Below, one piece after another: positions 6,841-61,038 of a DNA stretch of 64,000 bases; the first letter of the stretch is position 1; every line of letters begins with the position of its first letter. The notes beneath the pieces were generated by a model. The model saw only the letters and a list, made by a program, of their open reading frames with translations. It did not search any database and was not told the DNA's origin. A program made the translations under genes and the position numbers. The DNA is taken from contig CAJINV010000003.1 in NCBI GenBank assembly GCA_905178155.1, positions 3,649,378 through 3,713,377 of the forward strand, written 5' to 3'. The stretch is from Amoebophrya sp. A120. Lineage: Eukaryota; Protista; Dinoflagellata.

Positions 6841-7488
6841 GCCTTGTCGGTATCGTCCATGTTAACTGAAACAGGAAATCGATAAATCGACTTACGTAAA
6901 CTACCTTCTCGTTGCCCTCAGGCACAAGAGAGGGTGCGGCGCGTAAATGAAATCATAAAGGTTGTACAATGTTTTTACATAAACGAGCGAATTCGTCATA
7001 GAAGTGCTTGTTACTCACTTACTTTAGCCGGGCTTCGGCCAGTTGCGCTCTTGTAATGCTCTGGATCGAATAGGAAGATGGAAAAAGCATCATCGAAGGA
7101 ATTTCTTCTTTTTTTAGGAACGGGATCTGCACGAGTCTCCTGATGATCTGCACCAAACCACGGCCATGAATGGCTCGCAGTAGTTACTGCTGCATAAGTA
7201 GAGCGATAGAGATGATCTAACAAATTCATACCGAGGCAGGTGGCGTTGCAAGAACAGCCTCTTCCAGACAGGCCTCTGCATTTCCATCCCACGTCATGCT
7301 TCGAGGCACGTGACCGACAATTCTGCTCGAACACTCGCTTTTTTGGGCGCATGAAAAGACCATGTGTGTGCTGTGCTTACTTCGAATTTTCGGTGTGGTG
7401 ATGCGCACGCGTTAGAAAATAGGCTTCTACTCGTTATATTACATCTAGATGATAATGCACCGTACATGTACAATTCTGCGCTTTATAC

Positions 7489-30024: not shown

Positions 30025-31090
30025 TCAGTAGTCATGCAAAGCCCCAGAGTTGCTTGTCACATTGTGTCTCCCCAAGCAGAGCAATGCGAGAAAAGAAGCA
30101 ATTTGCAATGCCACCATGGTCCCCAGACCAACACCCAAAGTCAGCTTTGCTTCTCGTTTCTCCTTCGCATAGAGCGCAGAGGCAGCACTCTTTGACAAAC
30201 CACCCTCAGCTACCATCGTGCTAATTTTCTCGAGCACCTCTTCATCCTCCATTGCCCCGAATATTGGACGGCTCATGCAGCCGTTCTGCTGCACAAACAT
30301 CACCAACTGTAAATGTTTTTTTGGGAGGTACGTGCCACGAGCTTCAGCAGTGCTGCAGCTTTCTTTTTACTGCGAGAAGTTAGTGAAAAGCAGAAAGAAA
30401 ATCAAAATGAAAAACGACAACATTATCTGCATGAATTCTGTACAAAACAAGCACGTCCTATACCAAGATCGCCCAGGAGAAGATGAAGATTCCCTTGACA
30501 AATGCCCCCGCAGGAATGTTGTAGTTGTGGTGCTTCAAGCGGGCACAGGTGATCACGCTGCAGACCAACGCAGTTGTATGGAAGCGTCAGGTTTGAAATC
30601 GTCAAAGTTGAAATAATTTGTAATGCATAAAATGCATGACCCGAGGCACGTGTGTTGCAGAGCAGGCAAGTGAGGCCGATTGTAAGCCTGTTTGGGGTTA
30701 CAGCTTGAGCTGCTAAAGTAGCATGAGAAAATCGCTCGTCTTTGCCTAAACAGCATGACAGAGTGGATTTAGGGACCAACGAAATTTGTCTTGCACCACT
30801 TGGAAACCGGGTTCCAACTGGCGTCCATTTTATGCATGACAAATTATTTCAACTTTGTCGATTTCAAACCTGACACATCCATAAGTTGCGCTCGCCACGT
30901 AGAGGATCATGCGCGCTTTTTCGAAGTCCTCGGGACCGTTCCCTTGGATGGTGACAAGTGGCGCAAAAATCGTGGCTATATCCAGGAGAATGACCACCCA
31001 GTCGGTCCACTGCCACCGCGAGTTATCGTCACTGTCGTGTAAAGCGACCCCTGGAACGATGGCGTGGTAGTAGCGTGCATGATACGCCAT
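30025..31090 (-). CDS. Small multi-pass membrane protein (~198 aa) interrupted by an introner
   Basis: Exons 31090-30884, 30571-30464 and 30306-30025. Removing the element plus TSD gives ...YVASAT-ALVCSVIT.... GT-AG intron at 30307-30463. About four hydrophobic segments. Confidence 0.65.
30577..30883. mobile_element. Introner/MITE family E (307 bp), TIR ~55 bp, TSD AGTTG
   Basis: Left end TATGGAAGCGTCAGGTTTGAAATCGTCAAAGTTGAAATAATTTG is the near-perfect inverse of the right end ...CAAATTATTTCAACTTTGTCGATTTCAAACCTGACACATCCATA. AGTTG at 30572-30576 and 30884-30888. Confidence 0.9.
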
Positions 31091-32149
31091 TTTTTTCGAC
31101 GAGTTTAGGGTCGGGTCACAATGATATCCTGAAGATAGAAGAGCTCTGTCGCTGATGAATAAGGTTCACTACAATCGAGCTACCTATGCCCTGAAGCTGT
31201 TCGTAGTTGTACGCCTGAAAAAGCATGCGGCTTCTGTACTCTGCAGCGCCGCTGAAATTTTCCGAAACACACCGAGGACAATAGCACGAGCGAAAAGCGT
31301 CTCGAGACCCCTCAGGATATTCTTCGCAGTGGCGCAAGAAAACGACAACGCAAACACCTTATTTACGAAGTCCAAATTCTGTCCGATGAGACGCTTCATG
31401 TAAAACTTCAGAAATTCACTCTTCCTCGGCGACTTTCGCTCGTTTCAACAATGAAATCTGCGCAACCTGGTCGAACTCAAGCTTATACAACAGAATATTG
31501 CGACAAACGAGGCTGAAGAAGGACTCTTCAGCAAGAACGTTTATGATTTTTTCAAATTTGATATTTTTTTCTTTTTGTTTTTCTTTTCAACCTCACTTCT
31601 CTTGCAAAATAAAAAACGCGTCAGTCAGCGGTGGAACTGCTTTTTCCGCCACTTCCAATACAGCCAAAAAACTACATTTCGAAAGCGCTACGAAGTAGTT
31701 GCTACGTTCTGATATATCATGCGATCATTTACAGTGTGATTACCGAAACGTATTTGCGAAACCTGGAACTGGATCAAATCATTCATGAAGCAAGGTTCTT
31801 CTTGGAAAAACAAAAAAAACTCTCTGTGATGTAAGACGTTTAGCACACGCAAGGCCATTCCAATTCATTTTTAGGCGAAAGCCAGTGAAAAAAATCGCTA
31901 TATTTAAAACTGATTTTACACCGAGATCCAGCGACTGCGCTTCAGCCGTGGTTCCGGGCGCGCCGCAACCGAAGGTCCGGCTAGCTGTAAAACAAAAACT
32001 TTTCCAAAAACTAGAAGGTCTAAACCGACTCTCTTTCAACATCGCTATATGTGTAAGGAAGTGCTATCAATGACAGACACAAGTCTGACTTTGTTTTATG
32101 ACTTTGAATTAGAATTTCTCCATATTCTTCTCAAAAAATAGGCCCCGCT

Positions 32150-35100
32150 TTAGAAGACTGGCACACATTCATCGCTGTTGGCCACCACCCGTGCGTCGTT
32201 GGCACCACAGTCATACCAAACGACAGTGTGCGCGCCAGGCTCTTGCTCGTCGCACATGGGTTCTTGGTGACAGTGGCAGGACAGGTCCGCAGCGACCGTG
32301 GCAAATGTGTGCAACGGGTAGAACACTCGACACTGCTGCGCACATAGATAGGAGTCCCCGAACTTGAGACCCTGGCTATCAAACGCGACCTTCGGAATGC
32401 TGCGCTTCATGCTCGCTTCATTAGACCTCCTACTTCTCGCCACGTCAAGAACTTCTGTTTCGCTCTCGTCGGTCGTCTCCCACCTAGTATCGCAGTTCAC
32501 CGGTCGAATGGACAACTTTACAGGCTCGGGCTCTACATCATGAACGTCGTCTACTCTCCTGGTTTGCAAGAACAGCGATGGCGCCGCAGTCGTTGTACTA
32601 TTACTACTCCCAGCGGCCTCGCGTAGACAGTCTAACCCGGGCGGAGAGCAGAGAAGCGCCGCCTCTGCCTGTACGACATTCAGACTGTCATCGTCCGCGT
32701 TGCAGCTGTTTTCGGCCATTTTTCGCAGCGTCTCCTCGAGCTGCAGGAGCTTCTTCCCCGCTTTTTCTAAATTCTCCGGTGACTTGTCGGCAGCGGCGAC
32801 TTTGGCGGCCTCGCGCAAACCCGCACCCAGCACGTTGGACCGCGCTTCGAGCGCCTCGCAGTTTGCGCTGAGTGTGTGCTCTTCCAGTGCCTGTTTTGCG
32901 CGTTCGATTTTCCGCGTGCAGCGCGGATTCACAGCCGGCGCAAACTCCTTCTCGCAGGCCACACCCTCTTGCAGATCGTCCTTCAGTAGACTACTGAACG
33001 TATCCGACCGCGCCACGTTACAGTCAATCAGCGCCGTGGACCAGGCGAGCCGCTTGTCGGTGGCACTCGGCGACTTGCGGTAGACCAGGAGCGCGTTCCG
33101 GGCGGTGCGGCATTTATCCTCCTCTACCGTGCGCAGTTTGTTCATTTTCAACGCCGCTTGCACCTCGTCGATCCGCGCCTGCACCTTGTCCAACGCTCGC
33201 GTGGCGGCCTCGCACTCGGTGGCCGAATCCCCGTAGGACAGGCACGTTTCCTCCTTGCTTTTCTTGGCCTCGTCCGCGCTCGCGCTCAGCGCGTCGGAGA
33301 TCGCCTCCGCCTTCTCCACGTAGGCGCGCTCCGACTCGCCGCGCTCTTCCGTCGCCTCCTGGACGATCTTCTTCTCGTACTTCCCGACGGCAGCCATCAG
33401 CTCCCACACCGCCCGCTGGGCCACTTCCAGGTTGGCGCTCTTCGCTTCGTAGTTCAACCGCAAGCGGTCCTGGTCCAGGGCGGTCCCGTCGGTGCTGTTC
33501 AGGTACAGCTCCTTCGCGTAGGACTCCATGGCCTCGGCCCGCCGCAGCACGTCGAGCCGCTGCGCGGAGACGAAGCTCTTCTCCGCCTCCCCGATCTCTA
33601 CGAGCAGCGTCTTGTGCTCCTCGAACTTCGCCTTCAGCTCGGCCGTCAGCAAATCCTGCTTGGCCTTCAACTTCTCCTGCTCGTCCGCGGGCGCGGTTTT
33701 CATCTTGTCCTCCAGCGCCTTGAAGCCGCTCTGGAGCTGGTTCCGCAGGGCGTTCATGGACCGCCAGTCCTGCACCCGCCGCATCAAGGCATCCCGGCTG
33801 TCCCGACGCCGAAACCGCGCGCGCACCGCGGCCGACTGCTTGTTCTCCACCGCGAAGTGCGTCATGCTCTCCAACGGATCTTCTTTTACCGTCTCCCACG
33901 TCTGCAAGAAGGCAGTCCATTTGGTGGATTCCGCCGTGGAAAGACTCGTCGAGGTCCCGCCGGTCTGTTGTGGTTTTCTTGTGTGGAGGTCTGTGTAATA
34001 ACCTTATTTTCATCATCAGAACCTTTTAGACAGCATGCATGATAGTTGTGTGTGTTAAAGCCCAGAAGCCACCTACGACTTTGCATCGGCATCAACAGGG
34101 CGGCCCAAAGAAGATAAGTACCTCTTCATTCGCTTCGAGCACTGAGTAGTACGCGGCAACTGCGTGCGAAATGGACTCTATTCGCGTCGTCCGAGTAGTG
34201 CGATCCTCCATGTAGACGCCCATGCGCTGCTTCAGGTTTTCCAGGGTTGCCTTACGTTCGGCCAAGTTGAGCATCCGCAATGCAATCTTGGTCAAAATCT
34301 GTTTTTCTTGGCGCAAAGCATTCTTGCTGACCCGCACAAACACCTCCAGCTTTTCGTACTCGTCCCTGGCTGCGTCTTCCTGCACCTCTGCGGCCATCGC
34401 TGCGGCTTTCGCTTTATTGTACAGGTCCGTGTTGCCTTGCAGAGCTGGGTCAGCCAGTGCCTGCTTGGCAAGCTTCGTCGCCTCTTCTGCCACGAGCAGC
34501 CCTGGCTTTGCTGTATCCCTGGTTTCTTCAGAGACCTGCAAACGCGCTTCCGCGGCCGTCACTCGGCTCTCATGGACACCCTGCAGATGTTGTAAATTTA
34601 AAATTTGGTGGTGAAGTTTTCTCCTAGAAAACCCTTAAGAAGTCTTCAACTCTCAAGGTAAGAAAGATTGAAAAAAATACCTTCCGCTCTTCTTCCGCAG
34701 CTGACGCAGCCTCAGCCTGCGCTATTGCGTCATCAAGCAAGGTGGTCATGCGGTCATAGGATGCGGCCTGCTTGCCCTCCAGGTATTTCTTGAAGTCTTG
34801 CAGAGCGCCGGTTCGGTTGACCGCCAGAGAAAGGCGTCCCTGCGCCTCGACCACAGCGTTCGCAGCGTCGATTGCAAGCTTCCGTCCCGGAGTCATGTTT
34901 GCGACCACGCCGGAAGTGGCGTTCGCAACTGCACTGAGCCCGGGCACACTGCTGACGACGCCCCCGACGGCCCCTCCTAACAGACCTTGAAGCTCGTTGG
35001 CTTCGTTTACCGCCTGGTTCGCGAAGTGCTCCGCGCGAATCTCGGTCATTTGCGCCCGCGCCACGGATCCGGCAGCGGTGTCCAGCTGCGCGCGCGCGGC

Positions 35101-44100: not shown

Positions 44101-47100
44101 TTTCCCGCGCCTTCACGGCGAGGTCGGAGAAGTCCTGCGACACCGTCAGGTTGAGCCCGCTCTCTTCGTTCTGCTTCTGGAGCGCCTCCTGTGTCTTCAC
44201 CATCTTTTCGGCCTCCGCGGCGTGCTGGTTCGCTTGCCGCGCCATCAACTCCTGCTGCGCCTCCGCGCGCTCCATGGTGTACTTCGCCATAATTGCCATG
44301 TCCAGGTCGCGGCTGCGGAAAAGCTCGGCCACCGCCGCAGTCACCTCCAGAAACGCGCGCTCCAGGTAAAAGCTTTGCCGCTCGGCCTGATCCATCACGC
44401 GCTTGTACCCATGGACGCGATACACCAGCACGTGGTATTACAATGAAAAATGCCCCCGTCCCCGAACTTGGAAGCATTTGTATTGCAAGAAACCTTTCCA
44501 AGTGAAACATTCGCCCTCATGCATCTATCAGCATCACAGGTGTGCAATCGTGAGTAGCAAAAATTTGTATTGCAAAAGACCCCAGCAAGAGCGGCGCTTT
44601 TCATGGAAGCGATGCGATACACGCCTAGACTCTGCATCACAAAGATTCAGACTCCTTTCATGCATGACAAAAAGTTTTCATTTGGAAACTTCGCATCACA
44701 AATTGTTGCAACTTTGGGGGTGGGGGCCTTTTTCACTGTAATACGTGGTAGGCTTTCTTCTCCTTCTCGATCGCGAACTGGATTTCCAGGCCCTTCCCCG
44801 AAATACTGGCTGAAATGCGCGCCGCGCGGGCCTGTTCGTACATGGCTCGCGCACCCGTGCTCGGCTCAAACAACGCTTTCCGAGCGTCCTGTGAGGTTTG
44901 TTTTAGAAACATCAAAGTGCATTGCTCATCTTCACATTTGTTTCACACGACGTGGGGGCATTTTCAAACTAAATGGTTGTCTACTCTTACTGCCCAACGT
45001 CAACACCGTGTACCGGCAGATCCTGTGCTAGGGTCTTGTCGAGCGCGGATTGGAATTTGTTCTGCTCCCAACCGAAGACCCGCAAAACTTTGTCCTTCAA
45101 GTCCTTGTGGACCGACTCGAGTTCCTTCAGAAAGTGCGCCCCCGCCTTGTCGCGCGCCTCGCGGGCCTTCTTGACCCGCTTGCCAAGCTCGATTGCAGTT
45201 CCGTTCGCGCGCGCAGCCGCAGCGGACCGGCCGACCTCGTCCGTTTTGTAATCGTGGGCCATCTCCGCATCCTCCTCTGCCAGAATGCGGGCGCGATCCG
45301 CGCGCAGCAGGTTTTGCTGCCCGATGAGGAGGATCCGCTCGGCGTCGGTAAGCCGCTTCTCCAACTTCTCGCGCATGTAGTGCTGCTCGTTCCGCACCTG
45401 CGCCGCCAGCTGTGCGCGTTTCCGCATCGCCCGCCCCAGCCCTTCCCGCTCGAGAAAACACTCCAGCACCTTCGCATCCACTGTGTTTCTGGCCACCACG
45501 GCCTCCGCAAGGAGGAACTTGTCAAGCAAGTCATCGCCGGCACCCAGGGCCTTCATCTGCGCATTCATCGCCTTCCGCCACAGCCCTTCCGTTTCCTCGT
45601 CGCACGTCGCGACGCGCTTGTCCGCGGCGAACACCTCCTTCCACTGCAGGTCCACATCCGTCCATTACAATGAAAAATGCCCCCACCCCCGAACTTGTGA
45701 GCATTTGTATTGCAAACCTTTGCAAATGAAACATTCGCCCTCTTGCATCTATCAGCATCACAGATTTCCAATCGTGAATAGAAAAAATTTGTATTGCGCA
45801 AGATCCCAGCAAGAGCGGCGTTTGTCATGCAAGCAATGCGATATACGCCTAGACTCTGCATCAGAAAGATTCATAGTCCTTTCATGCATGACAGAAAGTT
45901 TTCATTTGGAAACTTTGCATCACAAATTACTACAACTTTGGGGGTGGGGGCATTTTTCATTGTAATACCGTCTTCGAACTGCGGTACGCCCAGCTGTCTG
46001 CGAAATCCATTTTCGACGCCGCCGCCTGCAGCTTCAGCAGGAGAAACCGCGCTTCGTCCTGTTTCGCGGCGAAGACCTCCGCGGAAAGCGATGCTTCTGT
46101 GGCGGGACTGTCCGTGAGCGAGCTCAGCGCAGCTCCGGCGCCCGGCTGCGCCGCGCCGCCGTCACCACCACCTACGGCCGGCGCCTTCCCCTTGTTTTCC
46201 GCGCCCTTTTTGCTCCCCGCGGCTGGGGGAGCTTGTGCACCGGTCGCTAGCCCACTGTTGGAAGTTGCATACAGCTGCTTCAAGAGCAGCTGATACGGAT
46301 CGTCTGTGCTGGCGTCTGCCTCAGGCTTTCCAAAAAGTTTGGACCGGAACTCCGCGCGCATCAACGCCTGACTCTTCAGTAGACGCCGCGTCGCGGCTTG
46401 CAACTCCACGGTCGCCTGCTTGTACGTCTTCAACGCGTCAGCATGTTCGTTCTGCACCTTCTTGCGATCTTCCATGAACATCTTGGCATACTGCTCCAAA
46501 TACTCCCGATCGTCTTTCATCTCGTAATACTTCGCCTCGGCGTTCAGAAGCCTGTTTTAGCGCGATTGTAAAGCGTTGGAAGGACCACACGCGCTTCATG
46601 TTGTGCTGGCTAGCATGCCTCATGATCAAGACACAAACAAGAGGAGAATACTTCCGCTTTGAATCAGAAAGAAGTCGATCCTACCACTTGAGGCACGTCT
46701 TATGACATCAGCACAATATTTTCACTTTGTGAATCATGAAAAACAAGGTTCTACTGCAAAAACTATACGCTTTCTTCGCTTGGACCATGCTGTATTGCTT
46801 CACCTTAGCCTTGTCGATACACTTGTCGTGGTCGTTTGGATCGATCAACGCTGAGCAGATGTCGTGCATCGATTGGAAGGCTTCGCGCGCAGCGTAGAAG
46901 GCCTGGCGTTCCTGGAGCAACACCTTCCACTGCTCGCGAATCGCCGCCTCCGTTTGGTCCGTCTCGTCCACGATCTGGGTCCGGAGTTCCGACTCGTGCT
47001 TCTGCAGCTGGGCCATGGCCTTGTAGGTGCTATCTCGGGCCGCTTTCTTGTTCTCCTTGTTGCGATCCAGGGTCTGCTGGGCCTGCGCCAGCGCGCGGTT

Positions 47101-50100
47101 GGCGTCCGCCACCCGCTGCCCCGCTTCCTTCTGCAACCGCACGGCGGTGTTGTACTCCGCGATCGCCTCCGCCTTGCCCACGTACGCCTCGCCCTCTTCG
47201 CGCAGGATCTTTTCGTTCCCGAGCTTCTCGTTCACCTTCGTGACGTTCGCCCCGCAGGCTTCCGCGTTCACGCCCGCCTCCCCGCAGTGCTCCTCCACCT
47301 CGGCTTCCCGGGTTTGCTCCCCGGGTAACGGCGTGCTGGCGTCGACGTCTGGAGAAACGGACGCAAGTGGTGGTTGGCCCGCGGCCGCGGCGGCAGCACC
47401 TTCAGTGCCATTGTTCTCGGTCGCATTACCGCTACTTGTCACGTTCGAGACGTCCTGCTGCAGAAACGAGACCTGTGCGGCCGGCGCCGGCGGAGGCAGG
47501 TCGGGATCAATCTTGGCCTCCCGATTAGCGGGGAAGGTCACTCCCGCGCTTTCGCCCCGATCGACCACTTCCTCCAGCACACCAGTGGCGTTCGCCACAT
47601 TCTTCTCCGCGATCTTCGTCCGCGCTTCGCTCTGCTGCAGCACAACGCGGCTGGCCGCGATCTCGCTTTCGGCATTCGCGTAGTTATTCTTCGCGTCCAG
47701 GAAGTCCCGGGTCGCCGCTTCCTCGACCTCCATCGCCGTGGCCAGGTCCGCTAGGCTGACGTTCCGCGCGACCTCGCGGTCAACCGCCTTGCGCTCGCGG
47801 GCGGCCACGCGCAGGTCGTGCGAGAGGCGGTTCTGGAAGCGCGCGCACTTGACGCCCCAGGGCTCGCACCCGGACAAATCGAAGTCGTCGTCAAACCAGT
47901 GGGCCTCCTCCTCGATCTCCTCGTCCTGCAACCGGCGCCGCGGATCCTGCGCGGCCGACGCGCGGAGGAGCAGTTTCCGGATGGCGTCCACGGTCATCAT
48001 CATTTCCTTCACCAGCTTCTTCTGCGCCGCGTCGGTGGAGTAGGACGGCAGCGCCTTGGCCTTCTCCACCCGCTCCTGCATGTCGTCCACGATGTCCAGC
48101 ACCTTCCCGAGGTCCGCGCCTACGTCCACGTCCGTCAACGGGTAGGTGCTATTTGCGTCCCCCCACACAAACTTGTCGTACATATTGCCGCCCTTGGCGC
48201 CGACCGCCTTGCGCAGCTGGTCCTTCAAATCCTTGATCTCCTGCTGCAGACTGCCGATCAGGTCGTTCTTGCCCTTCAGGCCGGTGACCTCCTCCTCCGA
48301 CAGTTTTTCGCCCTCGTTGGCGTCCGTCCACCAGGTGAGCGACTCGCGGTTGTACTTCTCCGTCAACTGCCGCAGTTCGCTGCGCAGTATCCTGAGTAAA
48401 AATGTCCCCACACCAGGGTCAAGTTGGCAAATCTGCAACACAAATCTCCAACTTTTGGCTGTTGAGCATGACAAGTTTGGGCTCGTAGTGTGATCCTGTT
48501 TGGCTAGCGCAGCCGCATGACAAATTGACTACCTTATCCTGATTCCAGCATGACAAACTCCCAGGTAGCATTAAAAAGTGGCTGTCTTGGGGCAACGCAT
48601 GAGAAACATTTTCAGCATGCAGATTTGCATTACAACTATGAGGTGCAGACGTTTTTACATAGGATACGCAGCCGCGCGTTGTCAGCCTGGAAGTACTCCA
48701 GATCTTTCTCCGCCGACGCGTAGTCCGACTCCAGCTCCTGCCGCACCTCTTTGTCTTGCGTGTGCTCCTGGCGGTACTCGGTCAGCTCCCCCTCCGCGGC
48801 CGAGAGCTGGTTCTCCAACTCCGTCACGCGGCCCTGCAGAATACGCTCCTTGCCCGACGCGTGCGTCGTGTCCTCGGAATGGTTGTGCTCCTCCAACCCA
48901 AGCTGCGCCTGCACACTCCGCAACTCCGCCGTCAAAGTCGCTACCTGTTTACCAAATGTTCTACTTTTTAGCCGTAAGATTTATTTTCTCGTTGCGTCAC
49001 GACGTGCCCCCGGGAGAGCAGCGGATGCAAGTATCATCTTTAATTAAACCATTCTTACTAGTCTGCTGTAGTACGCTGTCGAAGTCGGGAAAACGCAACA
49101 ACTCGTACCTCTTTTCTAGCTGCCGTAAGCTCGGCCTCGTCTCGCAAACGACGTTCCCTGTTTCGCTTCTCGAGCGCCACGGTCTCGTAGATGATCGACT
49201 GGACCATCGGGTTGCCCGTCTTCATGATTTTCCCAATGTTTTCCTGGACGTCCTTCTGCAAGGAGTCGTCTGTTTTGAAAACAAGAATTGCATGCGACTT
49301 TGCTTTCCATTGTAATGCGGATGCGTCAACAAGTTGCGAAACTACAAAGATGAAACACCGCAGAAATCTTCCTCGCGTACGAAAAAAAACACATACCGAG
49401 CTTTGACGGACTACTGCCAGCTTTCTCTCCTTGGGTTCCGCTTACCGCGGCTTCGTTCAAAACACCCTGCACCTGCTCCCGCATTTTTGCCACCGTTGCG
49501 CGATTGGCACTGAGCTCCGCCGTCATACCCTCGATTTTCTTGGCCATGGCGAGCGCTTCCGCGCGTTGCTGCTGCTCGTGCTCTACGTCTTCCGTTTTCA
49601 GATCGGTGTTCTCTTCCTCCTTCTCCTGCACCTTGCGCTTGAGCTCCGCTAACATCGTCCGCATCTCGCCCACCTGGCGCTGGGATTCCGCAGACGTGTG
49701 CTCCGCGGACCCGGTGCGTTGTCGGAACTGCTGCAACTGCTCCTCGTAAAAGTGCCGCTGCTCCTCGAGATGCGTCGTCAACTCCTCCACCTGTTTCGAT
49801 TGCTGCTGTGCGGTGGTGGTTAGATCACTTTTTTTCCGCTCCAATTTCGCTTCCTGAAAGGTTTTCTCCTCCTTCAGCTGTCGCTGTTCGTCCTGCAGGT
49901 GCTCCACTTCCGCCGTCTCCTTGGCTAGCGTTTGCTTGGTTTCTGATAACTCCTCTTCAACCTTCTTTTTTTGCGCCACTTCCTCCTGCAGGCGGCTGGC
50001 CTGGACCTCGGCGTTCTCCGCGCGGTGCCGGGCGTCCCACAACTGCGCCTGTAATTTCGCTATCCGGCTCGAAAGCTCTGTCGACGCCGCACTCGTCGCC

Positions 50101-52862
50101 CCAGCCGAACTCTCCGTCTGCAGCAACGAAGACTCCTGTCTACTTCTTGCGGTGCTAAAGGGAGACGAAGCTGCTGTTAACTCGGGTTGTACTAGAGGCA
50201 CTGCGAGCCGCGACGTTTCGGGCAACACGGCACTATTGCTGTTAGGCATCATGATCTTGTTCACATGTCCGCCCAGTTCAGCCAAGTTTGTGCTGCTGCC
50301 GGCCGCTAACTCTGCTGCGACCCGCACGCTGCGCTCCAGGTCCGCGGACTCCAGTTCTCGTTTTTCCGCATCGCGCTCCATCTCGGTCTCCCGCAAGAGA
50401 CGCGTGGACTCGCCAAGCGCCGCCTCTAATTTTGCAACTTTTTCCTGCCCCGAGGACAGTTCCGAGAGGTGCTTGCTCAAGTGCTCTTTCTCGCCTAGCA
50501 GTTCCGCGAGTTGCCTCCGCGTTTGTCTCAACTGCTGCCCGGCCAGGTCCCGCTCACTCTTCATCCGCTGCGCTGCCGCGGTCTGCACCTTCGCTTCCCT
50601 CTCCAGAACGCGCTCCAAATCTTGCTGCTTCAACTTCTCCTTCGTGGCCTTTCCATTAGCTACCGCTCGCTCAGCGCCGGCGTGGAACGCGGTTTGCTTC
50701 AGCGCTTCCAGCTCCGACCGCAGCGCCTGGTCTTTCGCCTATCAAATATAAAAATGTCTGGGTCTGGAAGAATCCGAACTTGTGATGCACATTTCAGAAC
50801 ACAGAAAAATCTCTCATGCATGGGTAGCAAAAGCTGCCCACTTTCTGTCACCAAAGTGGGGGATTTGTCATGCGGATTCGGCATTGCGGAAGCTTCTCGA
50901 AACCTGTAATGCTAGAGCTTCCATGCCAGACCTTCTGTGTCATGCAAAAACAGCATGACTCTTCCAGACCCAGACATTTTTACATTTGATATCGCCGCCG
51001 CCTCGTCCAAGGCCGTGGCCGCCGCCTTCTCTACCTGTCGGTGCAGCACCTCCGCGTCTTCCGCTTTCCTCTTTTCCGCTCGCAACTTCGCGTTCTCGGC
51101 CTGCAATTGCTCAATGAACGCAACTTCTTCTGCCGACAAAGAACCCGTGTGGTGGTTGTGCGTATCGGAGAAGAGCTCCAACTGCACAAACGTTGGAAAT
51201 TGGTTTTTCAGTTCCTCTGCTCTGCCGTCCTCGCCCGACTGCTTCAGCAGCATGCGCAGAATGTCCATTTCCGCAGCGAACGCCTCCTTGGCCTTCTGGT
51301 ACATGCCGCGCCCGCGCTCGAGCCGATCGTAGATACCGGGACTCAGGGTCACCGTCCCGTCCGCCTTGATGCCGAGTCCCAACTTGTACAGATCCGTTCC
51401 CAACTGCAAGGCGTGGTTCTTCTCCAGCTTTTCCTTGGTTTCCAGCCAATCGGCGATAACCGCGCTGCGCTTCTATCCTGATTAAAAACGTCCCCACACC
51501 AGAGTCAAGTTGGCAAATCTGCTAGACAAATCACACAGCTTTGGTTGTTTGGCATGACAAGTTTGTCCTCGTAGTGTAATCCTGTTTCGCTAGCTCAGAA
51601 GCATTACAGATCTAGCCTACCATGCTGATTCTAGCATCACAAACTCCAAAACACGAATAGAAAATGCTTCTCATAGGGCTCCGCATCATCATCATCATGT
51701 AGTGGACACCCGCTCCCAGCGCCACAGGTCAAGGATCCCCTCCCCGGGGGGTGGGCGAGGAAGCACTTTCGGCGACCTCAACATACAAAAGCCGAGCGCT
51801 ACCACGGCAAGTCGCCCCAATACAAGTGCCAACCAGTCGGGAGCTACCCACCACACCTGATCAGCACAGCCCGGCCAGCTAGCCGAGCGCGACAGCCGCA
51901 TGAGAAACTTTTTTGGCATGCAGAATTGCATGACAACTCTGGGGTGGGTACGTTTTTACATAGGATAGCTTCGTTGCTTTGTTCAGGCCGAGCGACTCGG
52001 GGCCAGAAACTGGGTCCGCCGCTTGGTCGGACCTGTCCTTGTAGGCCAGGTCGAGCGCGGAGATCCTCTCCTTCAGCTTCCGCTTCGAGTCCTCAATCAA
52101 CTTGTTCCCCGTATCCAGGAGCGCTTCCACCTCGGCCGGCGACATCTGATCGGTAGTCGCGTCCCCGATGGCGCGCCGCTCCGTCTCCGCCAGCGCGAGA
52201 TCGTTGTTGAAGTCTGCGCTTTTGTGATAGTGACCAGGCCGCCGATGATGTTTTTGCGACGGCGACGTACTTCTACTTTCATCGACATCGTCCGCAAGTT
52301 GTGCTGGTAATACAGAGGAGCTGCCGAAAATGGTACCGTCGCTGGCATGGTGGTTCCAGACCTCACCAAGCCAGTCGTAATACTCCTCTTTTTCGGTTTC
52401 CTGTTCGAGCCCGCTCGTGCCTGCCAGCACGCGGCTCTCGCGGCTGCGCAGCTCGGTCTGCAACCGGTACCGCTGCGCGGGACAAGTCTGCGCGCAAGAA
52501 AGCGACTCCTCCACATTCTCGGGGTCTATCTTTACGTTGCACTGCACGTAAATCGCGGTTTTCAGGTCGGGAAACGGATCCGCGAGAGCGTCCAGGGTCC
52601 GGGGCAGGGCAGCACATTGCCCGTTTTCTGTCCTCCTAGTTTTCCGTCGCTTCGCTGACGCCGAAAGTAGAACGGTGTCAGCCTCCTCCTGCAGAAACGA
52701 AGTGCGTGGCCTGCCGCCGCGACTGCGACCACTTGATGTCGCTGGTCGTCGGAACGGCAATTTCGGACGGACGCGGAACACCGGAACCGCGAATGCGGTT
52801 TGCAGACTCAGGAGTGCCGCGGACCATGATGAGGCGGACCTTCTCCTCACGAAATCTGCCAT
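32150..52862 (-). CDS. Giant secreted coiled-coil protein, ~5966 aa, 13 exons, with a C-terminal Cys-rich (WSC/PAN-like) domain
   Basis: Exons 52862-51968, 51468-50992, 50734-49446, 49255-49109, 48944-48667, 48382-46769, 46551-45968, 45657-45014, 44888-44744, 44430-42077, 41943-34681, 34580-34122 and 33901-32150. Seven GT-AG introns plus five introners, all phases consistent. Signal-peptide-like N-terminus (SWSAALLSLQTAFA) and many NxT sequons. Confidence 0.75.
44436..44743. mobile_element. Introner family A copy 1 (308 bp), TSD CGTGG
   Basis: TIR TATTACAATGAAAAATGCCCCC / GGGGGCCTTTTTCACTGTAATA. CGTGG at 44431-44435 and 44744-44748. Excision restores AYHV-LVYR. Confidence 0.93.
45663..45967. 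mobile_element. Introner family A copy 2 (305 bp), TSD CCGTC
   Basis: Highly similar along its full length to 44436-44743. TIR CATTACAATGAAAAATGCCCCCACCCCC / GGGGGTGGGGGCATTTTTCATTGTAATA. CCGTC at 45658-45662 and 45968-45972. Excision restores SKTD-VDLQW. Confidence 0.93.
48388..48666. mobile_element. Introner family D copy 1 (279 bp), TSD CGCAG
   Basis: TIR TATCCTGAGTAAAAATGTC / GACGTTTTTACATAGGATA. CGCAG at 48383-48387 and 48667-48671. Excision restores ARLR-SELRQ. Confidence 0.92.
50740..50991. mobile_element. Introner family C copy 1 (252 bp), TSD TCGCC
   Basis: 32-bp TIR TATCAAATATAAAAATGTCTGGGTCTGGAAGA / TCTTCCAGACCCAGACATTTTTACATTTGATA. TCGCC at 50735-50739 and 50992-50996. Excision restores EAAAK-DQALR. 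Confidence 0.93.
51474..51967. mobile_element. Introner family D copy 2 (494 bp including a nested insertion), TSD GCTTC
   Basis: Homologous to 48388-48666. TIR TATCCTGATTAAAAACGT / ACGTTTTTACATAGGATA. GCTTC at 51469-51473 and 51968-51972. Excision restores KATKR-SAVIA. Confidence 0.92.
51687..51895 (-). mobile_element. Nested non-LTR-type (SINE or 5'-truncated LINE) insertion with an (ATG)n tail
   Basis: Absent from the paralogous copy D1. Flanked by CCGCAT at 51681-51686 and 51896-51901. (CAT)4 at one end only. 494-215 = 279 bp, exactly the length of D1. Confidence 0.75.
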
Positions 52863-53709
52863 GGTATTCCAAGCGCCCCAGCAAACTTCTGCGCCGGCAT
52901 ATTGCGGCCTCACCACCCAAGGTCAATCCCCCAGCGTGACCTCAGATGCATTCTTGATGAAACCGATTTTATCGATGTGCCAAGTCTGCTCTAGTTGTAG
53001 TTGTCTCGTTTTATCGCTTTTCTCTTACTTTTAGTTTACCGCTTCTGTCATACTGGTACCGATGTTACGGCACCAGCGAATGTTCATACCCACCAGCTCA
53101 TACCCACCACCACGACCATTTTGCAATTTTCCGCTCGAAGAAAATTAGAATAAGCAGACTACATTCTCTCGACGTCAACCTGTCGTCAACAATAGGGCCG
53201 TGGGAGTACAACAAGAACCCTTGTTCAACCCGTTTCACAGAACACTTATCTATCAGGAAAAGTGCAGAATTTTCCCTTCTGCTTCTGCATCGAACTGATG
53301 CTGCAAAGACTTTCAGAAAACGCGCAAGGTGATACTGACGGCGAAAGTACCAACTTCTCAACCAAGTGGCTGTGAAACGATCCAACAGATAGAAGTTGAA
53401 ATCCCTTCTCGGAAGATTGATTGCTGTAAAAAGATTGTGAGGATGTGTGTCTCCTTCAGAGAGAGTTCACGCATACGCATTCCGCAAGTGCTACTGGATC
53501 TGCGGCCACGCAGATGAAGCAAGCAACTCCATTCCACTACACCACCGACCGGCATTCTCCGACGCCCGTAGTACCTCCACGATCAGCTCTATCCCTGATA
53601 AAGTCCTGTGTAGAAGTGCCTCCCGTGCCGAAGCCGTGCTTGTGAAGCTCGCACTACATCTCGCATTGTCACAGCCAGCGCCAACTTTTCGCATTTTGGC
53701 GCGAACGCT

Positions 53710-56700
53710 TCACATGTTGTCGAAGTCGAAGTCCTCGTGGTGATGCGCTGAGCCGGCTTTCCGGATGTTGACCGTCCTCTTCCCTTTGCTGTTCTGGATA
53801 AACTGCCCCGCTCGTTGAAAACTGGCGAGCCTTTGGAATTTTTGCGCAGCGCTCAGTTTATGCGTTCCGGCCGGCCCCACCGAGCCTGCGGTATCCACGT
53901 CGGTCCCAACCTGCAGCGCTACTACAGCCTCGGGCGACGCTTCCCCTTCCGGCGCCCCCGCTTGTTGTTGTGCGTTCTCCACCAAAGCAGCATCCTCCTT
54001 ATCGACAATCTCGGCAGCCGGAACCACAACTGTTCCCGCGACCAGTGCTGGATCCATTTCCGTTTGCTCCACTACCGGTTCCGCATTTTTTCCGGACGTA
54101 CGCATGGTGGGCATTTCTGAGTGAAGATTACCCACGGTGCGTTTTCTTTTCAAGCCGATGCCCTTCTGCATCTGCGACGTCAAATTCCCGACGGTGCGCA
54201 TACTTAGCAGCTTCCTACTTCCCAATCCTCCTACAGCATCTTCGTCCTCACCTTCGTCCTTCTCGCTACTGGCTTCGCCCTCGCCCCTGACCTGGGACTT
54301 CTTTCTCTTCTGCGGCTTCTTGCAGCAAAGCCGCCGGCTGACCGCCTTATCGTACCTAATTTCGCAGTAGGAAAGCAGCGCGATTTCGACGACTCCGAGT
54401 ATACCGAGCACCACTAGCAGCGCAATCAGGGCGGTGTTGTTCTCCCCCGAACTAGAGCCGGAAGACACCATGGGCGACGATGCCGCAACTACAGACTGGG
54501 GCAAGTAAACAGACATCGTCCCCACTGTGGGCGTCGCGGTGGCCACACTCGTCGTGACGTTGTTCAGTCCGACCGATTGCAGGGTCGCACTGCTTGCCAC
54601 AGCTGCTTGGAAGGATGAAGTGAATCCCTGCTGAAACGCGGTCGGAGAGCCGGCGCTCAGCTGGGCGACCATCGCCTGCGCCGAAGAGCCCCCGTCGAGT
54701 GCCTCGCTCGCATCAGAAAACCGGATTTCGTAAGCCACCGCGACCGTGACGGTTGATCCGACAGTGACGTTCGCGCCCGTCGTGGCGGTCAACACGCGAA
54801 GCAATGAGGGGCTTTCGATAACGATCGAGAACAAGATCCAGAAAAACCTTGCGCACTCGATTGCCGTGGTCAGAATGCTGTTGGTCGCGGCACAAATGCT
54901 AGTCTTCAACGCGTCCAGGAAGCCGGAGCACACGGAAATACTCGGATCGTTGAGCTTGTCCGTCGAGCCGCAGGCGGTGACAAAGGCGGAATTCCCGGAG
55001 AAGCTCAGCGTCATATTCGTGCCCGCGGAAACAACCGACGCTTCCGCCTCCACCAAGGGGTCGTCCGCGGATCCCCCCGTAGCGGACGTGGCGTTCGTGT
55101 TGTAGAGGTCCCCGATCGAAATGGGAGTGGTCGTCGTTGTTGGGGCGCTCGTTGCGGGGCCCACGTAGGGGGTTGTGGTCGAGGTGGACGTCGTCGTCGT
55201 AGAGCTTGTGGAGGTCGTCGTTGGCGGTGGCGTCGTCGTGCTGGTGGTGGTGTACGTCGAGGTCGTGGTGGTGCTCGTGGTCGTCGTTTCCCGGTAACAC
55301 AAGGTGGCGTGGCGCGAAACCCCGCTGTTGGAGGTGATTTTACTCAGCGCGTTGAAAATGCAGCTCTTACTCGCGCCTTGCCAGCTGTAGCAGCACCCCC
55401 CGAGCGGCAAAAAGTCGTCGTTGCGCGTCAAGTTCGTCGTGGCGTCAAACAGTCCCAGTTCCGAGGCTTTTTCTTCGCACTTTTGCAAGCACTCGTTGCT
55501 CACGGTCACATCTAAGTTCGTCACTTCGCTTGTGAGAGAATGCTCTAATGTGGAATCGGAGCAGTGCAGCGTGTTGGCGAACCCATTCGCGGGGTCCAGT
55601 GATTTCCCCGCCGCGGCGTCGATGGCGCCGCTCCCTAGAGTGCAGGAATAGGGCCACTTGGTTGTGGTGGTAGTCTCGGAAACAGGCATGCACAAACTTG
55701 CATACATGTAGGCGCCACTCGTCTCCTCCAGATCGTCGGTCACGCCCGCGTACCAGCGGCACGTGGAACTGGGTGCGTAATTGTAACAGCACCCGACCGT
55801 GTTTTGGAAGCTGGAGTAGAGATCGCAGAATCTCTGGCAGCTCGACGTGCTGTAGTCGTAGCCGGCGCTGACGAGGTGCGGAAAATTGTGCTGGTAAGCG
55901 GTGTCCTCCGTCGTAGCGGTCCCGGTCAGAGAAGTGGTTTGGTCCGCAAAGGCCGTCAGATTGCACCGTCGGTACGCCTGCATCTCGTAGCACTTGTAGG
56001 CTTCGTTTTCGCAGTTATCCCCGGCGCGCCGATAATCACACTCCGCACACACGCACTCCCCGTATTTTGTCGTCGTGCGCAAGCAGTGGCCGTTGTACTT
56101 CGCCTCCTCGATTGCGCAGTTCTGACAGCTGTTCGTAGTGCTGCTGAACACCTGAAAAAGGATGGGAGCGTGATTCTATGTATGAAGCACCGACTCCGGA
56201 GATCTTCCACAACCGCTACGTAAGAAAGTGCTTCAAATCCATCAAAATGCAAGAAAATAGACCAGAAGTAAGAGGAAGATTTGAAATTCGAAAAAAACGA
56301 CAAAAATCATAAAAACAAAGACGTGTACCTGCCCCGCCCGGCACTGCGTGACAACGGGCTGTATAGCTGTCCACGCTGACGCGAAAACGTACCAGTCGCA
56401 ACAAGGGTCGTAGAGGAAATCGACGCCCGTGGTAAGAGACAAAATCTTATCTGTGTTCCAACCAAATTTGTCGCTGGTGTTCCGCTCGAACTGCAGAGAC
56501 GGCCTCTGTTGGCGCAGCAAAATTGAAGGACCATTTCCGTCGTCCCACTTTAGTTCCGCGGGCCACAGCTCCCACTCTGACTTGGTCCAGCGGTCCATCC
56601 CATCCTTGCTGTAAGCATGCGCACCCCGAATCTTTTTCCGGTTGGAGGTGTGGTCCGTAGACTGCGTGTGCATGATCATGTGCGTGCCCCCCTGTTTGTC

Positions 56701-58152
56701 GATCCACATGAACAGATCCTCAGAATCTTGGAAAAGCGGAACGCCGAGCCGCGTATAGGGCCCACGCCACCACTCGGACGGATCCACGCCCGCCGGGTTG
56801 GAAGAAATCAATAATCCCACGCGCTCCGTGTGGTCGTGCGACGTGTCCGCGTCGCACCTCGTCCCCCGGTAGGCAATCACGGTGGTGCCATTCTCGTGCA
56901 CTACGAAGGACGGGTCCTTCGCGTCGCAGTCCCATTGGTCCAGAGTCCCGCTGTTCATGCCCTTGTGCACGCCGTCTTTCCACCCGTACACCATCTTGAA
57001 TCCCCAGGGGCCGTTCATCCCGGTCGTGGAGTTGTAGATCGCGAGGCCGAACACCCCGTTCTCGCTCCCGGTGGAAAGCATCAGCAGCTCGCTCGGCTTG
57101 GCCGGGTTTTGTTTCACGTCCGCGCGGAAAGGACCCTCCGCCCACTTGGGGTCGCGCATCTCGGTGAACGGGTATTGCAAGGAAACGTCCCCCCTCCCCA
57201 TATTGAAAGCACGTCTGTGATGCAGATTTGCGACCACAAGTCGGGCCTGTCTTGCAAAGAGGCACGCTCAGGCTTTCCGCCACGTCATAAAGGCGGTCTG
57301 TAATGCTGTAAGGCCTACAGGGTAGCCGTCTACCATGCGAAGCGCCTACACCAAGAGGCCCGCGGCTAGACTTAGGATCTGCGTGCAGTCCTCTACTGCA
57401 ACACAAATTTGATTTGTGTATCCAAATCCAGCATCAGAAGTTTCGTTTTGATATGGGGTGGGGAGATTTTTCCTTTTGATAACGGGCCCCACGGGTTCCC
57501 GCCCACGTCGGAGACGAACCTGGTCAGGATCGGTCGTTGCTCAAAGATTGTGTCATTCAAATAGGGGTTATAGGTCGTGGTGAAGTACCAAGGGATGCGA
57601 CCCGCAGTCTGGAAGACGGCGGCGCCCGCGTTCACGTTTTGCTGCGCCGCATTGTAGGCCGGACTCCGCCCCCAGGTGGTGTAAGGATCCACAACATTGC
57701 CCCAGTAGGGAAGATCGCCGGTGGGGTCCGGGCCCCCATCCAAGTACTCCTCGCTGATCACCTTTCCGCCCGTCACGAGATGCCAGCGGTTGTCCGTCGG
57801 TTCGAACCAAACAGTCCCTCCCCAAGTCGGATGGGACGCGTTCATCATCCACAGACCGGGCGCGCTGCGCTTCAACGGAAGTAGATCCAGCTGCGTACAT
57901 TCCGGTCCCCGCCAAGGAATTTTGCACTCGCATTGATACGTCGGAGCGTTGTGATAATCTAGGGTGGACGTGTCAAGCTCACAGAAGCCGTTCCCGTGTC
58001 AAGCTCACAGGGTCGCACGCCGTGAAGTTGTAGTCCCAAAACCCCCACGATGGCCAGCTTGGAACGCTCCGTCTACCGAGGACACAATCATCGCTCACGC
58101 GCTGCGCTGCTACAAGGACGAAGAGGAGCCGCGGTCTCTTTCTGCGCAACAT
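53710..58152 (-). CDS. Type I membrane/surface protein: EGF-like motif, glycoside-hydrolase-like propeller region, Cys-rich repeats, Thr-rich mucin stalk, TM helix
   Basis: CECKIPWRGPECTQLDLLP (EGF-like). WGG, DPSF, WRGPY, EDLFMWID, HAYSKDG..W and RQQRP resemble GH43/32-like propeller proteins. GT-AG intron at 56152-56328. Poly-Thr stalk at ~55130-55290. TM ALIALLVVLGILGVVEIALL. The 5' exon junctions (~57240-57480 and ~57980-58010) are uncertain. Confidence 0.6.
57969..58010. repeat. 16-bp direct repeat CGTGTCAAGCTCACAG, period 26
   Basis: Copies at 57969-57984 and 57995-58010. Confidence 0.9.
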
Positions 58153-59046
58153 GCACGACCTCACAAAGGTTGTACAATGCTCGAGATAGCTGGCGTCTAA
58201 TAATTCATACCCTATATTATCTTTCCTGGAGCAGGCGCGACTCGCGCCCCACTATCCGCCGCAGCGCGGCAGCTTTGGCTAATTTGGTTGCGTAAGAGAG
58301 CAAAGGCATTCACAAGCTCAAGGAAAAAAAACAGCAGTCTCCGTTTTTTCTCTCTTTCCATACGAAATGATTTATCTAAGATAAAGCGTGTGGTCAAATC
58401 ATCAAAACAAAAAATGAAACAGACGTTTGCGTTTGGGTGCGTAGCCACTAAGCCCTGGGTGGAGTTACAACTTGAAACCCAAATTGGCGGTACTGTTTGG
58501 TCTACTCATCGAGTCTAACTGACAGTCGTCGACACGCCTCTCTCAAGTGGTCTGAACAGATTCGACTATTCTCTCTCGGTCTCTGGTGTAAAGTCGTCCT
58601 CTCAACATGCGATTAATCGCACTGACCGATGACATTTCTGGTGTGAAATCATCCCCTCAACATGCGATTGACACCACTGACCGATAACAATTCTGCCTCC
58701 GAACGTCTGGTACGTGGGTTCTGCCAGTATGCGTTCGCTTTCGAACAAACTCTTGATCGCCCAGAGCAGCCGAGATTCGCACAGGCAAGCTCCTGACCAC
58801 ATCCATACGTCAGATGCCCCCATGCGCATACTGTGTCGAACTATTTGATGAGCTGATATTTTTGCACCTGTGCACTGGGCACGAAAGCACGCGTCGTCGA
58901 ATCGGAGTGCGCTTCTCCAGTTTTCTTTCATTTCTTACTCGCAGTCGCTCCTTCTACATCTACTGAATAATCGCTCGCACCATACAAAGTAGTCCTGTGG
59001 TACCGAAACACGAGCCGCACGGGTTTCCATCGTCGACCCACCAGAC

Positions 59047-61038
59047 CTACACCTTTTCTTGCGTCCGATTATCGATCAGAGGCTCTTGACTCGTAAGTTC
59101 GGCCGACGACGGCAGATACTCTCCCAGCGCGGACTGAGTCTTTGTGCTGCTCGTTCTTTTCGAGGCTACTTTACTCGCCGGCGTGCTTTTCTTCTTCTTG
59201 GCCAGAGAATACAGCACGAAGCCGGTGCTGGTGAACGCAATGGCGAGGAGAATGTAGTAGCTATTCAAATCCCATGCGGCTTTCGGACTGCCGAAGCCGA
59301 CCCAGATTTGGCGCACCGAGTAGAACGAGGGCGTTTCCCACGCGATGCAGTAGAACATGGTTGTAACCAGGGGCACGGCGACCCCCATCGCGACCGTGCT
59401 CATGGTCGCCGCCCCCGCGTGCTTGACCAAAAACAGCTGGAGCGTGGTGGAGGAAACGTTCACCAAGGCCTGCATTGTCAGCCACAAACCCAGATTCTGT
59501 TCGCTGCAGAACCGCGACGCCTCTCCGCGCCCCACGAAACACTCCGCCCCCTTCGGGATGAGCGGAAACACCTCGCTGACCGGGATGGGGTTCGCGTTCA
59601 AAAACGGCACCGCCGCGAACAACATCAGCGGAATTGTGAAGACGAGTTGGAAAAAGTTGATCCACTGGCTCATGTACCACAAATCTACATTCTGCAGGTG
59701 CCGCAGGTTCGCCTCCTTCATGGTGTAGGACGCGGAGTAGAACAAGGGCTTGAACAGATATATGATGATGAACGTTGCCAGCGAGGACCCCGATAGTTGC
59801 GACGAAGAACCACCGTCGTCCGCGTCCTCCCCCAGATTGTTCAGTCCGCGCCCGAAAACCGACAACGCCGCCCCGCAAATCAGAAGCAACGCGCCGACGT
59901 ACTGGAAGGCCACGAACCGCTCCTTAAGGAAGACGTAGGTAAGCAGCATGATGAAGGGCAAGCCTATCTGGTCCAACAGTGGCTGCACGGTGCCCGGCGT
60001 GCGCTGTCCCAGGGCGTTGGCCAGATTTGCCATCGCGTCCAAGCCCGCGAGCACGGCGAACACCCAGATCGGGATCTGTCGCCGGACCTCCTCCCGCAGC
60101 CGCCATGCCTCCGGAAACAGCTGCGGAAACCAGCGCCGCGGGTAGACGAAAAAGCCAAACACCGTAAAGTAGAACAGGTTGATCATGTTATTTGCGAAGA
60201 GGGAGTAGTCCTGGGCCTTGTCTTCGATGATCTGGAGCGTCTGTCGGTCGGTGGCGTCGAAATCCATACCCGGCGGGACGTCGTCGTTCCGCAAGACGGA
60301 CCCCCACTTGGCGAACGCCTTCTTGGTGAAGAAGGCATCCAGGTATCAAATGTAAAAATGTCTGGGTCTGGAAGAATCCAACTTGTAATGCTGCGTTTGG
60401 ATTCCAAAAAAATCTGTATTGCATGAGTACCAAAGGGAATGTAATTCTTGCTACGCGGAGAGGGCATTTGTCATGCGGAATAGGCATCAAGAAGCTCTCA
60501 AAAAATCTGTGCTGCTAGGGCATGCATCACAGACATCAGGGCTCATCCAAAACGTGCATGACAAGTGTCAGAGTCTTCCAGACCCAGACATTTTTACATT
60601 TGATACCAGGAGTCGGGCAACCACCACCAGAATCACGAGACCAACAAATTGCACGGGTCTCAGGGTAGAAGTAGAGGTGGCCGGGGAGGCGGCGCCCTTT
60701 ATCTTCTTTATCCCGTCCTCGTCTCTACTTGCACTAGAAGCTGGCACCACAAAAGAGCCCCTCGTTGTGGAAACGAGGGTCGAACTCCCCTTAAACTCCG
60801 CATCGTCCTGTTGGGCGATGCCCCCGTCATTGTTCCGACCGGTCGGAGCTAAGGTGCCAACCGCTGGGTAGTACTCCACTTCGCTACCGGGCGTAGCCGC
60901 GGACGGCCTTACAGTCGCTGCAGAAATTCGAGCAGGCCGCAAAGTGCTGCTAGTGCTGCTCCCCGGCTTTTTTCCTCTCGCGGAGCCTTGGTCTCCCGCG
61001 CCCGCGCGGCGCCTCAGTACATCCTCCCGTTGGCTCAT
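59047..61038 (-). CDS. CRT-like (chloroquine resistance transporter family, DMT superfamily) transporter, ~574 aa
   Basis: About 10 hydrophobic helices. TPGTVQPLLDQ..LPFIMLL..FLKERF...QYVGA, VDLWYM..W...FQ and GAECF are CRT/CLT-family features. Exons 61038-60606 and 60338-59047 are joined by introner removal. Confidence 0.8.
60344..60605. mobile_element. Introner family C copy 2 (262 bp), TSD CCAGG
   Basis: Perfect 32-bp TIR TATCAAATGTAAAAATGTCTGGGTCTGGAAGA. CCAGG at 60339-60343 and 60606-60610. Excision restores ARLLD-AFFTK. Confidence 0.93.

Follow-up and report, generated by a model that had tools for sequence, protein, structure and literature searches.

The 64,000-nucleotide stretch of dinoflagellate DNA considered here, the window in what follows, derives from Amoebophrya sp. 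A120, the pelota exon in it being 100% identical to the A120 protein and 64% to that of A25. In A120, non-canonical introns number in the tens of thousands. Eight elements in the window, located by a scan for terminal inverted repeats (TIRs) plus inspection and totalling 2,518 bp, are introners of the kind published for this organism. They have TAT…ATA ends in common, with the exception that A2 begins CAT, and all eight are flanked by a perfect 5-bp target site duplication (TSD). An inverted-repeat tip of the form TAT-N7-A-rich is common to A, C, D and F; E has the TAT without the A-run, and two further families, I and J, also deviate from a rule of TAT, seven bases and at least three As. Each window family is multi-copy, with homologues among the fetched loci. 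The subject of this account is a short word, the box (about 11 bp, consensus WGCAWBACARAT), that recurs inside all of them, a near match being one with at most one mismatch.

No strand is assigned to the elements; the signs below are box orientations, and the skips are from runs classed as RNA by guess (RNA-like contigs). Element E (30577..30883, 307 bp, TSD AGTTG) has boxes at 30618(-), 30721(+), 30753(+), 30786(-) and 30834(+), and runs X3 and X7 skip 312 nt there, i.e. the element plus 5. A1 (44436..44743, 308 bp, TSD CGTGG), with boxes at 44478(-), 44531(+), 44565(-), 44634(+), 44662(+) and 44693(+), gives an X3 skip of 313 nt, and its relative A2 (45663..45967, 305 bp, TSD CCGTC), with boxes at 45705(-), 45755(+), 45789(-), 45822(-), 45858(+), 45886(+) and 45917(+), one of 310 nt in the same run. 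All seven boxes of D1 (48388..48666, 279 bp, TSD CGCAG; X3 skip 284 nt) are forward, at 48435, 48466, 48515, 48548, 48568, 48597 and 48627, and all four of C1 (50740..50991, 252 bp, TSD TCGCC; X3 and X4 skip 257 nt) are reverse, at 50780, 50865, 50904 and 50937. D2 (51474..51967, 494 bp, or 279 bp without a nested insert; TSD GCTTC; X4 skip 499 nt) has forward boxes at 51552, 51601, 51634, 51898 and 51928 and a reverse one at 51913. In F (57173..57481, 309 bp, TSD ACGGG; X3 and X4 skip 314 nt) there are near-match boxes at 57215(-), 57298(-), 57398(+) and 57431(+), and in C2 (60344..60605, 262 bp, TSD CCAGG) boxes are at 60383(-), 60468(-), 60524(+) and 60556(+); for C2 there is no joint among those listed, and its removal leaves open frames. 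The elements are strongly clustered, with six of the eight packed in 44.4-57.5 kb and none called in the first 30 kb (1-30500).

There are 21 exact matches to GCATNACAA in the window, against a mean of 1.9 and a maximum of 5 in 100 shuffles, and 19 of them are inside the eight elements (7.55/kb inside versus 0.033/kb outside). The near-match count of every element exceeds those of all 300 dinucleotide shuffles, and nine GT-AG introns of similar GC (1,357 nt) contain one exact and two near matches. The original prediction of such a motif had cited 15 positions, all of them real (12 exact, one, 50779, displaced by a base from 50780, and two, 30753 and 50904, one-mismatch variants ending ...ACAG), and its claim of rarity outside the elements is borne out by the shuffles and the outside density. 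The five to seven matches that it gave each copy are instead zero to four exact and four to seven near (four in C1, C2 and F), and the families that it counted as four are five in the window, F, with no exact and four near matches, having been overlooked. An arrangement with reverse boxes to the left and forward ones to the right, also proposed, is roughly that of E, A and C2 and is not that of C1 or D1, where orientation is uniform (4/4 and 7/7). The two exact matches outside elements are at 7051 and 49310, the latter within the GT-AG intron 49270-49396 and possibly a decayed element remnant.

Elements beyond the window came from metagenome contigs scanned, over 14 of 64 parts, for one box together with a terminus, which yielded at least 152 loci, 146 of them on JACKZZ01 contigs. 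The latter are assigned to an Amoebophrya close to A120 because a JACKZZ01 protein is 55% identical to an A25 protein and the JACKZZ01 elements are up to 97% identical to those of the window. (The six other metagenome loci were rejected as chance matches without homology to the elements; one, L052, has a TSD and a TA match 226 bp upstream, with one box only.) A motif-free caller, which used no more than TA ends, end complementarity and a 5-bp repeat, returned 297 calls from the 575,491 unique bases and 1 from block-shuffled DNA. The 295 calls kept group into 13 families, and the box is present in 13/13. Elements outside the search-pattern matches have 7.66 exact matches per kb (331 in 43,239 bp), and when homology was masked with box-masked queries the density was 8.49/kb in element-like DNA, versus 0.375/kb elsewhere and 0.22/kb in DNA of matched GC lying 150 nt or more away. 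In six families that have no window member and were never pattern-matched, an exact box is present in 76 of the 86 copies and at least two near boxes in 84; some called elements carry a single near box. Among 448 full-length copies gathered by profile with no TSD filter, the 5-bp repeat is exact in 325 and has a single mismatch in 81; a 6-bp repeat is seen in none, and 426 have TAT…ATA ends.

Blind counting of k-mers places GCATGAC, present in 12 of the 13 families, and GCATGACA, present in 11, top for their respective lengths. The 74 sites read W-G-C-A-(T 64/A 10)-(G 39/C 21/T 14/A 0)-A-C-A-(A 59/G 15)-(A 56/G 14)-T, positions 1-9 being seeded and the flanks, together with the absence of A at position 5, unseeded. 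In alignments of the 13 families (singletons, one two-member cluster and copies over 330-340 bp being excluded), conservation is 0.83-0.98 in box columns versus 0.68-0.93 in spacers and is higher for the box in 13/13; position 5 is freer than the remaining box columns, again in 13/13. When ends and boxes are removed from the window elements, the interiors give z of at most 3.0 between families versus 7.6-26.6 within them. Whole-element alignments across the window families are significant, and among family majority lines the clear alignments (z 9-19) are C_b/C_c and F/K, with C_a attached to these weakly, a few other pairs reach z 4-6 and D/E is weak; C and D were joined under loose clustering and separated under stricter. 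Common ancestry of the families is likely, because termini and TSD length are common to all. Judged by their interiors, which without ends and boxes mostly fail to align between families, they are not one recent family from which the motif was simply inherited, a possibility that the original prediction had named as fatal to itself, and the box would be what was kept. Its description of the TIRs as differing needs correction, since the TAT…ATA ends, TSD and A-rich tips noted above show that the TIRs are not unrelated. Number, order and orientation of boxes vary between families, with box positions similar in E, A and I. Resemblance of box to TIR tip is at best slight, 25 of 606 ends being within one mismatch and none exact, and across the first 20 offsets the mean matrix score, though highest at TIR position 4, is negative even there. 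As for the tips themselves, a few variants of the first 13 bases are common to several families, within a copy the ends are often unlike each other, and one variant is a single mismatch from the box over positions 4-12.

Boxes are also set at preferred distances. Of same-orientation pairs within 70 bp, 22/50 are 31-33 bp apart, in 12 of the 13 families (null mean 2.7, with at most 12 in the best 3-nt window in 3,000), and with related families dropped the figure is 15/32, in nine of ten groups. An origin of the 32-bp pairs by tandem duplication was rejected, the flanks of paired boxes being 28% identical, near chance. Adjacent back-to-back pairs occur at 7, 16-17, 36, 46-50, 68 and 103 bp and show a 10.5-bp phase (R 0.73-0.78; for three family sets the best-period null gave 0, 7 and 26 of 4,000); a general 10.5-bp period over all adjacent pairs was rejected (R 0.12). 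At 20 of 26 family ends the outermost box points outward, six at 32-33 bp, thirteen at 40-44 bp and one at 55 bp. The proposal of a conserved cis-code uniting the families has accordingly held up, with the motif present in all 13, kept while spacers diverge, and spaced by preference.

At the RNA level, seven of the eight window elements (all but C2) are skipped exactly as element plus 5 nt, and the same runs skip nine GT-AG introns. A GT-AG register is available in none of the eight, though C1 does offer a GC-AG one. Run X1, which is DNA-like, continues into the elements, where its summed contig depth is hundreds of times that of the flanks, a figure that is not a copy number; excision at the DNA level was considered and rejected, X1 having no joined form at E among the joints listed. 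(Two raw RNA runs of 2026, X9 and X10, leave the exons here uncovered and are uninformative on splicing; X9, which is from another study, has at 50960 and 60344-60392 a single element of C type whose TIR is the same but whose interior differs, with an exact box close to its far end.) A codon model assigned the host strand with confidence to 159 of the 292 elements scored (105 of 108 agreeing within loci) and to six of the eight in the window, all minus. Orientation within genes is balanced in C_a, the largest family (21:22), G (9:9) and H (6:7), with D at 14:6 (p 0.115). Both box orientations are present in 130 of the 159 strand-called elements and one only in 29 (14 forward, 15 reverse).

What happens to boxes after insertion was judged by pairwise tests. 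For 213 disjoint pairs the ratio of motif to spacer divergence is 0.70 (0.57-0.84) among the closest quarter and 0.39-0.48 among the others, with 0.40 for pairs taken at random, a trend that fits selection during rounds of transposition. Box decay in coding (192) versus non-coding (76) copies differs by +0.006 (-0.006 to 0.022), i.e. not detectably, where the non-coding class may include untranslated regions (UTRs) and other introns. The terminal TAT/ATA has 1.9% mismatch in imperfect-TSD copies versus 1.3%, and TIR positions 4-22 rise from 12.4% to 16.6%. This terminus is near-invariant (1-2% mismatch) in copies whose TSD and TIR interior have decayed, as a splice signal might be, but it is at least as intact in non-coding copies, so that such a role is no more than possible.

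Presence of the box in 13 families, its conservation, its set distances and its indifference to strand are matters of observation. The interpretation preferred, to which a probability of about two in three is given, is that the box is a docking site on double-stranded DNA for a single mobilising protein acting in trans, which would likely be an integrase-type transposase encoded elsewhere or a host cofactor; that such a protein binds, what it is and what part it plays in transposition are suggestions from sequence pattern. Several protomers would bind along a 150-320 bp element on a lattice of about 16 bp, with 31-33 bp corresponding to three helical turns. The bound protein may help to pair the two ends, position cleavage at TA and leave the 5-bp duplication. 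Copies that keep the array would be copied again, so that selection on mobility could maintain the box while spacers and TIR interiors drift into families. Removal from pre-mRNA would be a separate step, likely via the terminal hairpin and the duplicated target and not via the box. That all 13 families have in common an 11-bp box with its spacing rule, a TSD length and a type of terminus suggests a single superfamily that one protein serves, and the box provides a bait for pull-down, a signature for the autonomous element and for decayed copies, and a way to separate signals for mobility from those for splicing.

A number of results weigh against docking of a mobilising protein. No transposase was found in 10 long TIR-bounded spans (the 9 that were read being nested inserts, captured sequence or neighbouring elements), nor was any transposase or integrase family (Pfam) in 190 of the 252 ORFs of at least 200 aa, from about 0.6 Mb only. 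The accessible part of the published account reports no transposase in A120 and deems general transposase-mediated mobilisation to be ruled out (Farhat et al. 2021, PMC7789003). Phasing is selective: face-to-face pairs are without the 10.5-bp period (R 0.22), same-orientation pairs outside 31-33 bp are weakly phased, and for all classes the helical period is a poorer fit than a lattice of 16-17 bp (R 0.62 for all adjacent pairs; 0/1,500). Within families, 31-33 bp intervals undergo 0.60 length shifts per 100 nt versus 0.70 for other mid-length intervals, and, because families may share ancestral layouts, the p-values for spacing overstate independence. Imperfect-TSD copies gain mismatches at 0.037 in boxes and 0.050 in spacers, a ratio of 0.73 (0.34-1.46) that spans both neutrality and the baseline of 0.43, and even for the closest pairs the ratio of motif to spacer stays below 1. 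As a separate matter, three pattern scans of viral contigs gave 2, 0 and 3 loci, the first two of which lack a partner end or element homology, and no virus-like partner was found in them.

It is on these ratios of motif to spacer that a host protein, possibly a domesticated transposase, gains some ground as reader of the box. It would mark the element on the chromosome, recruit the excision machinery during transcription and perhaps mobilise the element too, which would account for an excision that is precise, independent of U1 and possible in both orientations. Strand indifference and spacing are compatible with it, the closest-pair ratio and the range for imperfect-TSD copies allow continued constraint, six of the seven spliced elements are without a GT-AG or GC-AG register, and U1 snRNA was undetected, as well as no transposase reported, in A120, as far as the accessible text goes (PMC7789003). 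Boxes that coding copies keep no better than non-coding ones (with the breadth of the latter class as above), constraint that relaxes toward the tips, and called elements with a single near box make this unlikely. A bolder form, a little more doubtful again, has a single DNA-binding protein of the host, possibly domesticated, reading the array, mobilising every TAT…ATA family and licensing the exact excision of these elements from the nascent transcript; if true, the array-reading protein would be a DNA-templated, orientation-blind substitute for U1-type recognition of splice sites in an organism whose introns are mostly non-canonical. An ordinary chromatin or transcription-factor site of the host, aiding amplification indirectly, e.g. 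by keeping the element accessible, would account for a double-stranded, strand-indifferent word and for the low background outside called elements (0.22-0.375/kb, and 0.03/kb in the window), but the boxes are at fixed distances from the cleavage ends and several of the outside matches inspected fall in decayed element-like DNA, so that such a site is very improbable.

Action of the box as RNA, with a splicing factor binding the single-stranded word or opposite copies pairing to fold the intron, was the second of two functional options in the original prediction, DNA binding by a transposase being the first. In predicted folds the TIR stem does extend through the outermost opposite boxes in E, A1, A2, F and C2 (probability 0.73-0.88), and the preponderance of elements with both orientations and the skew of D lean the same way. 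Predicted box-box pairing is at most 0.01 in D1 and at most 0.21 in C1, yet both are spliced exactly, with opposite words on the RNA, and the pairing version is thereby largely refuted. More generally, because both gene orientations occur (nearly equally in the largest family) and copies with one-way boxes are still spliced, with the 29 one-orientation elements divided almost evenly, and because boxes have no detectable advantage in coding copies, a signal in RNA or specific to strand is judged highly unlikely; of the two options DNA binding fits the data, and the transposase as its reader is an extrapolation. Least credible is that the box is functionless, left over from a repeat that a single ancestral element had and passed on to all families. 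Shared termini and TSD length would be expected of it, as would the significant whole-element alignments, the spacers that align in C_a/b/c, F/K and weakly D/E, and the merging of C and D under loose clustering. What tells against it is the low between-family similarity of the window elements once ends and boxes are removed, box columns that exceed spacers in all 13 families with the fifth base free, and the differences between families in number, order and orientation of boxes.

The end arrays of Mu and Tn7 are subterminal arrays of transposase-binding sites. For Emigrant/Lemi1 (PMC1636448) and for the inverted/direct repeat (IR/DR) ends and enhancer of Sleeping Beauty (PMC5224488), the accessible texts describe a protein-DNA complex shaped by how many short internal sites there are, how they are oriented and how they are arranged, as is proposed here, and cite the subterminal repeats of hAT and CACTA elements as of the same kind. 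Internal transposase-binding repeats in miniature inverted-repeat transposable elements (MITEs) are thus, as a general idea, already known (PMC1636448). Such systems, as described there, have a motif inside both ends at set positions that is kept over spacers, which is also found here. Those of Emigrant and Sleeping Beauty repeat part of the TIR, whereas the present box is at best weakly TIR-like, fills the whole element and spans families that cannot be aligned; binding has been demonstrated for theirs, according to the same sources, and is proposed for the box.

With regard to introners proper, the accessible account of those of A120 (Farhat et al. 2021, PMC7789003) is of the same organism and has inverted repeats of TAT, 7 nt and an A-run, short direct repeats, non-canonical splicing and a MITE-like character. 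It deals with terminal IR/DR motifs only, in 1,954 families with direct repeats of 3-5 nt, as distinct from the 5-bp TSD and the one internal box over 13 families found here. In the part of a later survey that is available, family 38 of A120 is termed 'Ginger', '5-bp TSD, TA/TA Termini', is about 810 bp and has ORFs like integrase regions of Copia/Gypsy (Gozashti et al. 2025, PMC12130899). It has the listed 5-bp TSD and TA/TA termini in common with the window elements, and is the best candidate for a relative of the autonomous partner; other A120 families are mostly 'TIR DNA, Unknown' among 41 of 58 rows (PMC12130899). IS3EU/GingerRoot (PMC10045372, PMC6839031) resemble the present elements, in the text available, in TA..TA termini and lack of target specificity (here there is a mild GC lean), and they have integrase-related DDE enzymes; their TSD is usually 6 bp, unlike the 5 bp here, and the word 'subterminal' is absent from the accessible GingerRoot text (PMC6839031/PMC10045372). 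Ginger1 and Ginger2-TDD have TGTNR termini, unlike the TAT here, with TDD-4/5 sharing the 5-bp TSD. The elements are known, then, and the box and its spacing rule appear to be new in that no description of either was found in the introner literature and supplement text, figures, Roy et al. 2023, subscription journals and theses being beyond reach.

Several observations concern sequence within or beside the elements. The insert nested in D2 (51681..51895, with no strand assigned) is GC-rich, 215 nt, begins with a (TCA)n run and is flanked by a CCGCA repeat; a joint 51680-51896 in contigs is likely from other D copies. Two further copies (L061:6344-6555 and L030:10372-10556) are 97% identical, and all three are inside introners, so that the insert is possibly a SINE-like element that targets introners or is tolerated there. 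Another insert, L028:632-1465, ends in a run similar to (TCA)n. A 111-bp near-palindromic TAT…ATA element (L019:1862-1972) is nested in an E-family copy, and captured or inserted foreign sequence is present in the long copies L023:505-1608 (with GC-rich short repeats), L055:3862-4492, L054:571-1051 and L061:1255-1671. At L020:2422-5877 an adjacent pair of ORFs matches the C-5 cytosine DNA methylase family. Within the window there is also, at 58582-58691, an intergenic 55-nt tandem duplicate whose copies are 82% identical.

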